A stretch of DNA of 59,401 nucleotides, from positions 1 through 59,401 of IMG/VR virus record IMGVR_UViG_3300002038_000009. One strand, written 5' to 3'. The position numbers were made by a program, and so were the translations under genes. The stretch is from a virus. Below the pieces are notes generated by a model. It was not told the origin of the DNA. It saw nothing but the letters and a program-made list of their open reading frames with translations, and did no database searches. Shown here one piece after another: positions 1 through 59,401 of the stretch (position 1 is its first letter; each line of letters begins with the position of its first letter).

Positions 1-46
1 GAGCCGCCGCGTGAGCCGCCAAGCGAGCCGCCGCGTGAGCCACGTG
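1..46. repeat. Terminal redundancy of the window (1-46 identical to 59356-59401)
   Basis: GAGCCGCCGCGTGAGCCGCCAAGCGAGCCGCCGCGTGAGCCACGTG is present at both ends, and an ORF crosses the junction in frame. Confidence 0.9.
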
Positions 47-47549: not shown

Positions 47550-47626
47550 TGGGGTGTTCGATGGGGTTCGAACCCACATCCTCCCAAGTCACAGTCGGGG
47601 GCCTTACCAGTTAGACCACGAACACC
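47550..47626 (-). tRNA. tRNA-His (anticodon GUG) with encoded G-1 and 3' CCA
   Basis: Manual fold of GGTGTTCGTGGTCTAACTGGTAAGGCCCCCGACTGTGACTTGGGAGGATGTGGGTTCGAACCCCATCGAACACCCCA. It gives a 7-bp acceptor stem plus G-1:C73, a D arm GTCT/AGGC, an anticodon stem CCCGA/TTGGG with loop CTGTGAC, and a T arm GTGGG-TTCGAAC-CCCAT. Confidence 0.85.
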
Positions 47627-56819: not shown

Positions 56820-57062
56820 CTATGACACATCATCGTCACCGTAACCGCTACCGTCATCGTCATCGTCATCGTAACCGCTACCGCTACCGCTACCGCTACT
56901 GCCACCGTAACCGCCACCGTAACCGCCACCGTAACCGTAACCGTAACAGTAACCGCCACCGCCACCGTAACCGCCACCGCCACCGCCACCGTAACCGCCA
57001 CCGTAACCGCCACCGTAACCGTCACCGATCAAATCATTAAAACTAACTATTTTGGGTTCCAC
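56820..57062 (-). CDS. Gly/Tyr-rich low-complexity protein with a poly-Asp tail (80 aa, GTG start)
   Basis: (M)EPKIVSFNDLIGDGYGGGYGGGYGGGGGGGYGGGGGYCYGYGYGGGYGGGYGGSSGSGSGSGYDDDDDDGSGYGDDDVS. This frame is contiguous with the upstream gene. All three frames are open across the repeat. Confidence 0.5.
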   Translation of the reverse strand: MEPKIVSFNDLIGDGYGGGYGGGYGGGGGGGYGGGGGYCYGYGYGGGYGGGYGGSSGSGSGSGYDDDDDDGSGYGDDDVS

Positions 57063-58157: not shown

Positions 58158-58293
58158 GGGCCAATCTCTCCCTAACAGGAAACTTAACTTCAACGTACCC
58201 GCGCTGATAGCGGTGCCTTATTGCTATCGGAATATCGGCCAATGCTTTAGCCATCTTGCGCTCGTGTTCTGCTTGCTTGGTTTGGTTGCTCAT
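58150..58293 (-). CDS. small basic protein candidate (47 aa)
   Basis: GGAGAG RBS. MSNQTKQAEHERKMAKALADIPIAIRHRYQRGYVEVKFPVRERLAHD. It fills the gap after the pentapeptide gene. Confidence 0.45.
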   Translation of the reverse strand: MSNQTKQAEHERKMAKALADIPIAIRHRYQRGYVEVKFPVRERLAHD

Positions 58294-58875
58294 TTAACTC
58301 TCCAATTCCGCTAATCTTTTCATGTCTTCCATAGCCTCGTCATTAAAGCAATGAAAGTCCGGTACTTTTCTTAAATCTGGATCACTGACTAGATATATCA
58401 AGGTTGCTGCTAGCGACGTGCCAAGGGAAGCTTCAAGTTTCGATCCACCCTCGCCAGCTAAGGTTGTTACCCACCCTGCTCGACAATGGGTTGTTTCACA
58501 TGAATGCCACTCATGCATGTTTAATGCGCCCTCCCTAGAAGCTGCCTCATAGACTTCTTTATGTATGTTTTCTATGACAGGTACGTCACTCAGGGCGGCA
58601 AGGCTCAGAATGGTGCCCCTCAGAATGGTGCCTCTCAGGGCGGCAAGGCTCAGGTCGGCACCACTCAGATTGGCATGGCTCAGGTCGGCACCACTCAGGT
58701 CGGCACCACTCAGGTCGGCACCACTCAGATTGGCATGGCTCAGGTCGGCTCCGTTTTTAACCGCCCACTTCACAGCCAAACCAACTTTCTCTGATCTTTC
58801 CGCATTTTCATCACAGTATATATCGGCGGTAACTTGAACGTCGCCGCTAAACCTATTTAGAATATCGAATTTCAT
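58294..58875 (-). CDS. pentapeptide-repeat protein (193 aa)
   Basis: ADLSHANLSGADLSGADLSGADLSHANLSGADLSLAALRGTILRGTILS, encoded by near-perfect 15-nt DNA repeats. The C-terminal domain contains HEWHSCETTHCRAGW. Confidence 0.85.
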   Translation of the reverse strand: MKFDILNRFSGDVQVTADIYCDENAERSEKVGLAVKWAVKNGADLSHANLSGADLSGADLSGADLSHANLSGADLSLAALRGTILRGTILSLAALSDVPVIENIHKEVYEAASREGALNMHEWHSCETTHCRAGWVTTLAGEGGSKLEASLGTSLAATLIYLVSDPDLRKVPDFHCFNDEAMEDMKRLAELES

Positions 58876-58887
58876 TATTCTTCTCCG
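58868..58887. repeat. 20-bp junction repeat AATTTCATTATTCTTCTCCG (second copy at 450-469)
   Basis: Both copies span ...GEE-stop, the RBS and an ATG-AAA-TT gene start. Confidence 0.9.
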
Positions 58888-59089: not shown

Positions 59090-59401
59090 TTAAGCCATGA
59101 CCTCATCTAGTTCACGCAGTCTTATTGCCTGTTTTTCGCTTAAGCGAGTCTGCTTTCCGTCATTCCCGATTTCCAGTAGTTGGTCTAGTGTTTCTAGCAC
59201 TTGGTCCCATATTTGTTGCGATACAGTAACACCAGCAACACTAGTAACACGGGCAGCACGGGCAGCAGCCGCAACAGCATCAGAATCAGAATCAGAATCA
59301 GAATCAGAATCAGAATCAGCATAAGCATCAGCAGTCGCCGCCGCGTGGGCCGCGTGAGCCGCCGCGTGAGCCGCCAAGCGAGCCGCCGCGTGAGCCACGT
59401 G
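59090..59401 (-). CDS. 3' part of the wrap-around gene (see 1-457)
   Basis: The frame is open to the window end. The GTG 'start' in the ORF track is internal (…HVAHAAARLAAH…). Contains ADSDSDSDSDSDSDA. Confidence 0.75.
   Translation of the reverse strand, partial: HVAHAAARLAAHAAAHAAHAAATADAYADSDSDSDSDSDSDAVAAAARAARVTSVAGVTVSQQIWDQVLETLDQLLEIGNDGKQTRLSEKQAIRLRELDEVMA
59279..59320. repeat. hexanucleotide microsatellite (ATCAGA) x6 plus one imperfect unit
   Basis: Direct reading. It encodes (Asp-Ser)n on the minus strand. Confidence 0.95.

Follow-up and report, generated by a model that had tools for sequence, protein, structure and literature searches.

A cap-rod-head pentapeptide-repeat protein of a 59-kb phage and its possible role in early interference with the host

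What might a phage gene do whose middle is a run of near-identical 15-nucleotide (nt) repeats? The question is raised by a minus-strand open reading frame (ORF) at positions 58294-58875 of the IMG/VR virus record IMGVR_UViG_3300002038_000009; the window analysed here is the whole of that stretch, 59,401 nt. An earlier note on this DNA had proposed a pentapeptide-repeat protein of the early arm, a candidate DNA mimic comparable to the gyrase binders Qnr and MfpA. We find that the protein belongs to PHROG 31265, a large and uncharacterised family of phage proteins in which an N-terminal cap and a C-terminal head are conserved and the rod of repeats between them is not. To the explanation we favour, an early host-interference protein with the head as specific module and cap plus rod as evolvable scaffold, we give about an even chance. 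The parts of the gene are as follows.

58294..58875, minus strand: complete coding sequence (CDS) of 193 amino acids (aa) plus stop, with cap, pentapeptide rod and His/Cys head (ORF list; PHROG 31265, E 8.1e-52; more than 1342 homologues)
58750..58875, minus strand: N-terminal cap, residues 1-42, a beta-hairpin (2-7, 13-18) and a helix (27-40) in the AlphaFold2 model, where the predicted local distance difference test score (pLDDT) is 90-94
58585..58749, minus strand: array of 11 pentapeptides, residues 43-97, about 2.75 coils, in near-identical 15-nt units (PF00805; Tandem Repeats Finder, TRF; unit table; superposition on structures of pentapeptide-repeat proteins, PRPs)
58297..58584, minus strand: C-terminal 'HCRAGW' head, residues 98-193, all-alpha (AlphaFold2 helices; 1427 representative clusters; no Pfam model matches)
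58471..58509, minus strand: His/Cys cluster W123-H124-x-C126-x3-H130-C131-R132-A-G-W135 (alignments A1, A2 and A3; substitution table)

Run without an alignment, AlphaFold2 gave an unusable model (pLDDT 49.7); with a 68-sequence alignment (A1) the score was 85.5. The latter model consists of the N-terminal cap, a beta-helix from about residue 41 to 97 and a separate all-alpha domain at 104-192. In alignment A1 the cap has the conserved motif N-R-[WF]-x-G-x-V-Q-x-T-A-E-I. The repeats, which the earlier note had expected to form a DNA-like helix, indeed model as a canonical right-handed quadrilateral beta-helix, with a root-mean-square deviation of 0.6 Å over 51 residues from MfpA (2bm4) and 0.8 Å over 51 columns from Alr5209. 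Np275 also superposes, and NleL and SopA are among the fold matches. The cyanobacterial proteins Np275/Np276, Alr5209 and HetL, however, are without the cap and head of our protein, and the query falls far below the cut-off of the NCBIfam HetL model. Beta-helices of this kind rise about 4.8 Å per coil, and at this rise the 11 units (about 2.75 coils) span about 14 Å, roughly 4 base pairs (bp); the net charge of the rod is -4 and its isoelectric point (pI) 4.5. The further suggestion that the C-terminal part is a domain of its own agrees with the model, in which it comprises about 95 aa, and with the occurrence of this domain elsewhere without pentapeptide repeats.

The head is strongly conserved. 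Its modelled helices lie at residues 104-112, 120-125, 132-139, 141-151, 153-164 and 178-192, and C131 immediately precedes the third of these. Ten positions (H105, encoded at 58561-58563, and W123, H124, C126, H130, C131, R132, A133, G134 and W135) are each at least 90% conserved, among them five candidate zinc ligands. All nine polar positions that we tabulated are kept in 112 of 150 head representatives; losses are single, with H105 replaced by Asp six times and C131 by Ser four times. A head-only query (residues 98-193) recovered 1427 representative clusters (50% identity, E <= 0.001). The Ralstonia phage members of PHROG 31265 are also found with the head by itself. Among the best 150 of these matches PF00805 occurs in 88, and a few have leucine-rich repeats (LRR), DUF4116 or Cys_rich_CPCC; other carriers have Cys-x-x arrays or merely a short N-terminal extension. 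By our own classification, Cys-rich N-terminal parts occur in 26 of 157 fetched loci. Many heads that seem to stand alone are ORFs cut at contig ends inside the array, and those clearly internal to their locus are few (L066, L068 and L108).

Searches for the identity of the head gave leads only. It has no Pfam match, no PDB sequence match and, modelled within the whole protein only, no convincing fold match. The ESM Atlas offered DUF8296 (template-modelling, TM, score 0.55) and DUF6197 (TM 0.53), and the genome in the window has no match to DUF6197. The defence models of PADLOC-DB matched neither the query nor five relatives of other architectures at E <= 0.01. A search for longer proteins in which the head is fused to an enzyme returned only Cys_rich_CPCC + PRP + head forms. 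As a side observation, the Cys-x-x triplet arrays stand before the same head in sister proteins P0184, P0194, P0201, P0240, P0256 and others, which share a distinct conserved N-terminus (W..D.NGNR.S..YFGS).

In contrast to cap and head, the rod varies widely. Estimated unit numbers run from 0 to 37 across the family; for the 120 nearest homologues the range is 9 to 30 and the median 18. The query has 11 and, at 193 aa, is shorter than all but one of 119 listed nearest homologues. As the collections contain no close relative of this phage, repeat number was compared among related phages in Bakolyvirus, the nearest cultured group, and was highly variable: the rod has about 7 units in Ralstonia phage Jenny and about 38 in Sarlave, and their heads differ at a single residue. 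Rod charge varies as well, with a median of -0.27 per unit, a range of -0.86 to +0.41 and 8% of rods net positive. In the metagenomic pair P0283 and P0285, the heads are identical and 50 of 52 aligned cap residues are identical, at a length difference of 110 aa and with about 2 versus about 24 units. In a second pair, P0290 and P0291, the 47-aa caps are identical and the arrays similar, and the heads are unrelated. These two pairs are direct snapshots of rod resizing and head swapping, respectively. A separate observation concerns the deposited sequences: GenBank records of Ralstonia phages Adzire, Elie and Simangalove (L164, L167 and L168) start or end within the array, and annotation there is limited to a truncated 85-aa 'hypothetical protein' that is the head. 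Evidently the array either broke the assembly or set the point at which the record was linearised.

Swapping of modules is not confined to one pair. When only the cap (residues 1-42) was used as query, 33 proteins were recovered, 32 of them besides the query at 61-76% identity. The HCRAGW head follows this cap in only two of the 33; DUF5758 (PF19062) follows it in seven or eight, and among the others there are at least four more tails, all unrelated. Caps with other tails are also found in cultured phages (Caulobacter phage Jess A gp021 and Rhizobium phage RHph_TM3_3_14B gene 031). The DUF5758-tailed proteins are the nearest relatives in cap and rod, with metagenome and prophage matches at 65-76% identity over residues 1-42, but their C-terminal head is completely different from the HCRAGW head. 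Gene 031 of RHph_TM3_3_14B, which is one of these DUF5758-tailed proteins, is 55.8% identical over residues 1-95; it too lies early in its genome, with a repressor gene upstream. In a set of 104 proteins that combine cap and HCRAGW head, pairwise cap identity and head identity are essentially uncorrelated (Spearman 0.07), so the two ends appear to have evolved separately, with the intervening array as the obvious place for crossovers.

Residues 43-97 read without interruption ADLSH ANLSG ADLSG ADLSG ADLSH ANLSG ADLSL AALRG TILRG TILSL AALSD, and Pfam PF00805 is matched at 61.2 bits (cut-off 20.2, E 6.5e-17), in keeping with the A(D/N)LS(G/H) pattern first read from the translation. On the plus strand, 58589-58753 holds 11 in-register 15-nt units, each opening with CTCAG. 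Four exact copies of the unit CTCAGGTCGGCACCA lie at 58649, 58679, 58694 and 58709, each 1 nt away from where the earlier note had placed the four copies, and a fifth copy at 58739 shares 11 nt. The duplication of a larger unit 60 nt apart also stands, but it is exact over 41 nt only; over the 45 nt originally proposed, 42 of 45 positions agree.

58649..58689: exact 41-nt duplication, copy 1
58709..58749: exact 41-nt duplication, copy 2, 60 nt from copy 1

TRF describes the tract as period 60, 1.9 copies, 92%. Throughout the array the same peptides are encoded by the same codons, and Leu is CTG in 11 of 11 cases, a codon that accounts for 14% of Leu across 11 long ORFs of the genome. Since four independent ADLSG units would share identical codons with a probability of about 7e-9, we regard the 15-nt units as recent copies, in line with the recent expansion suggested in the earlier note, and not as products of chance or of convergence at the protein level. 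The array has 64% GC (guanine plus cytosine), against 45% genome-wide in this window. Even in very different phages the units have similar DNA sequences (GCC-GAC-CTG-AGY-GGY), with GC well above the surrounding genome. As a further observation, the arrays of 86 loci (among L002-L161) average 70.5% GC against 58% in their flanks, the array exceeding the flank in 99%; CTG encodes Leu in 82% of units, and 71% have GCC as their first codon. Arrays are GC-rich irrespective of the phage's own GC. Amino-acid composition accounts for part of this excess, but not for the uniform codon choice. Phages may exchange their arrays, conversion within an array may be biased towards GC, or the DNA itself may be under constraint.

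The location of the gene bears on when it may act. In this genome the plus strand encodes terminase, portal, major head, tape measure and lysis genes, and the minus strand encodes DNA polymerase, helicase and primase. The pentapeptide gene belongs to a tightly packed set of small minus-strand genes upstream of the primase, helicase and polymerase genes. From its position this run is plausibly an early arm, as the earlier note had placed it, and gp4 of RsoP1IDN is arranged alike. PHROG 31265 was matched from residue 31 to 192 (profile positions 76-247 of 264), that is, over rod and head. Its cultured relatives are Ralstonia podophages, in which the product is called 'putative pentapeptide repeat protein', and Flavobacterium phage FL-1. 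The Ralstonia podophage proteins (RsoP1IDN gp4, RSK1 ORF34, RpY1, the BHDT group and Bakolyvirus) have the same cap-rod-head order with an HCRAGW-type head, at 56-60% identity over the head and 41-57% over the whole protein. There, too, the gene stands among small early-region genes ahead of the replication genes; in RsoP1IDN it is gene 4, before primase and helicase. These relatives are podophages, whereas the phage studied here is siphovirus-like, with a 59-kb genome that encodes a tape-measure protein. In bacterial genomes the gene is rare (92 confirmed loci from a scan of 185,579 species, in many phyla); the isolates checked have it in prophages, on the same strand and downstream of a CI-like repressor, near RecT/RecE. 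No neighbour cluster is common to more than 6 of 79 viral loci, so the gene looks like a self-contained module, and none of the window's neighbouring genes recurs in other viral loci.

According to the explanation we favour, the protein would be made early, together with the surrounding small genes, and would act against the host cell, either to take it over or to counter its defences. The head would be the specific, target-engaging module, possibly through a bound metal or a reactive cysteine, and cap and rod would serve as an exchangeable scaffold of variable length. The length of the rod may evolve through slippage or unequal recombination between the near-identical 15-nt units, and the repeat tract may double as a crossover site for head swaps. 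The only experimental precedent that we found comes by analogy from Vibrio phage 24, whose gene 24_60 encodes a pentapeptide-repeat protein with a hard-to-assemble repeat tract and is postulated to act against the Sucellos defence; its deletion makes the phage sensitive to Sucellos (bioRxiv 10.1101/2024.07.02.601686). The likeness lies in a phage pentapeptide-repeat protein with a repeat-unstable tract.

Several points weigh against this explanation. Among 50,697 phage records no Vibrio phage matches the HCRAGW head, so 24_60 is an analogue and not a family member. As neither sequence nor fold comparison gave the head a significant match, its putative target-engaging role follows from conservation. 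Losses of His or Cys one at a time in a few members prove neither a metal site nor a catalytic site. The cap is highly conserved too and could equally be the functional end, and the shortness of the cap could inflate the weak cap-head correlation. Early expression is deduced from gene position alone. Our literature search returned no paper on the PHROG 31265-type family, on the Ralstonia phage proteins or on DUF5758.

A broader explanation, which we offer tentatively as a possibility, places the weight on the family and not on one target. The cap-rod-head proteins may form a polymorphic early family in which the repeat tract is a portable recombination linker that alters rod length and swaps heads (HCRAGW, DUF5758 and at least four others), by analogy with polymorphic toxins. 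The family might then represent a combinatorial arsenal for counter-defence or host takeover, of which this gene would be one allele.

It is unlikely, in our judgement, that the protein acts as a general DNA-mimic decoy, in which a mildly acidic beta-helix would imitate duplex DNA and titrate a defence enzyme of the host that binds DNA, such as RecBCD, BREX or a restriction enzyme, and the head would dimerise or anchor it. The rod does share its fold with the DNA-mimicking MfpA and Qnr, it is acidic, as is the median rod of the family, and the position of the gene is early and accessory. Genomic linkage adds to this side. Of 157 loci, 13 have a RecT gene on the strand of the pentapeptide gene. 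In 9 of the 13 it is found 0-1.7 kb downstream, which resembles the position of gam in lambda, and RecE follows in 4. The proximity of RecT is a lead to a role related to recombination or RecBCD, but far from a general one: a linkage with RecT/RecE as a rule was rejected on these counts, and in this phage it was not seen. Moreover, a rod of about 14 Å covers roughly 4 bp, the family tolerates 0-37 units with some genuine locus-internal members having no rod, and 8% of rods are net positive. The same head also stands on Cys-x-x and LRR rods, which are not DNA-like, and the conserved parts are the cap and the head.

We consider equally improbable that the head is an effector enzyme, a small Cys/His hydrolase or transferase that would modify a host protein with the rod recruiting the substrate. 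H130-C131-R132 is nearly invariant, and in the model C131 is placed at the N-terminal end of helix 132-139, as is typical of reactive thiols; its replacement by Ser in 4 of 150 representatives could be read in the same way. Head swaps on one chassis resemble polymorphic effector systems. The fold matches of the rod to NleL and SopA suggest a model, since these type III effectors combine a beta-helix with a HECT-like ligase, and a pentapeptide-type platform joined to a distinct C-terminal effector domain would be found likewise here. The analogy is architectural only, however: the heads are unrelated, SopA and NleL are far larger and they act in eukaryotic cells.

A topoisomerase binder of the Qnr/MfpA type, which would inhibit or protect host gyrase or topoisomerase IV during infection, is very unlikely. 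MfpA, Qnr, AlbG and McbG have the same right-handed quadrilateral beta-helix and interact with topoisomerase, and the query gives weak sequence matches to the NCBIfam Qnr and MfpA models; these reach 17-24 bits, however, against curated cut-offs of 240-480 (MfpA 20.3 against 360), so that they fall more than ten-fold short. In MfpA and Qnr each monomer has 8-9 coils, and two monomers join tail to tail as a dimer; the present rod, at 2.75 coils, has about one-third of these coils and an unconstrained number of repeats in the family. Qnr has about 9 coils interrupted by loops A and B (reviewed in part in PMC10886550), but the 11-unit array is uninterrupted and hence has no Qnr loops. Where the known proteins have a short C-terminal dimerisation helix (PMC10886550), a globular head of about 95 aa stands here. 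That phages do target gyrase through other small proteins, Igy and Gip, provides a precedent (PMC10886550). Taken with the variable and partly positive rods and with conservation in cap and C-terminal domain rather than in the rod, the DNA-mimic and gyrase proposal of the earlier note receives no specific support from our data.

That the ORF is a functionless, drifting repeat, a selfish microsatellite-like expansion in a decaying gene, is hardly credible: an unstable tract does truncate assemblies and annotations in relatives, but here the frame is intact with every unit in frame, a Shine-Dalgarno site and coupled stops and starts are present, thousands of phages share the conserved cap and head, in which about 25 positions are near-invariant, and the model is confident. 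The pentapeptide ORF is a genuine phage gene, and its two ends read as follows.

58873..58886, minus strand: start region, with a GGAG Shine-Dalgarno sequence 7 nt 5' of the ATG, which overlaps the TAA of the upstream 65-aa gene (TAATG) (sequence reading)
58291..58296, minus strand: TAA stop abutting the ATG of the following 47-aa gene (TAAATG) (sequence reading)

The abutment of stop and start suggests co-transcription and translational coupling with the 47-aa gene. As a side observation, an exact 20-bp stop/Shine-Dalgarno/start junction (minus strand CGGAGAAGAATAATGAAATT) occurs at both 58868-58887 and 450-469; it precedes the pentapeptide gene and a gene that wraps around the ends of the record, and both proteins begin with MKF.

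Taken by itself the gene is unremarkable within its family, which is catalogued but unstudied. This family is very large (1427 head clusters at 50% identity) and is found in many unrelated phages and prophages, where it occupies early or accessory regions; hypervariable repeat number together with swapped modules are signs of genetic conflict. If a target of the HCRAGW head were found, thousands of 'pentapeptide repeat protein' annotations would gain a function, and the default annotation as Qnr-like resistance or DNA mimic would come to an end. On the practical side, deposited phage genomes suffer from the repeat tract, at which assemblies break and annotations are cut short.

The record is a complete 59.4-kb viral genome; its ends overlap by 46 bp, and the record 'end' near this gene is therefore arbitrary. 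Among the ORFs scanned in the window no integrase and no repressor was found. Megablast of the region against the 50,697 phage records gave no near-identical phage, and the best IMG/VR relatives are 60-66% identical. The minus-strand arm that holds the pentapeptide gene contains two more coding tandem-repeat tracts, both at most about 2.6 kb away from it.

56834-57027, minus strand: tandem-repeat tract, period 6/12/24, inside a Gly/Tyr-rich 80-aa ORF
59275-59396 continuing into 1-41, minus strand: tandem-repeat tract, periods 6 and 12, with Asp-Ser and Ala/His repeats

The Asp-Ser and Ala/His repeats belong to the ORF that wraps the record junction (556 to 59090 through the 46-bp overlap). It is unusual for one early arm to hold three repeat-built genes.

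Two loci of relatives have peculiarities of their own. In Flavobacterium phage FL-1 (L169, 2501-2792) the head homologue is in two pieces that straddle the gap between two short annotated CDSs; a frameshift or a sequencing error may have split it in what is the sole cultured carrier outside the Ralstonia phages. In Xanthomonas sp. NCPPB 1128, the 12.6-kb surroundings of two homologues on one contig (L084 and L085), 37 kb apart, are 100% identical, which reflects either a tandemly duplicated prophage or a duplication in the assembly. Finally, the window encodes a tRNA-His (GTG anticodon) at 47550-47625 on the minus strand, between the primase gene and the next minus-strand ORF.
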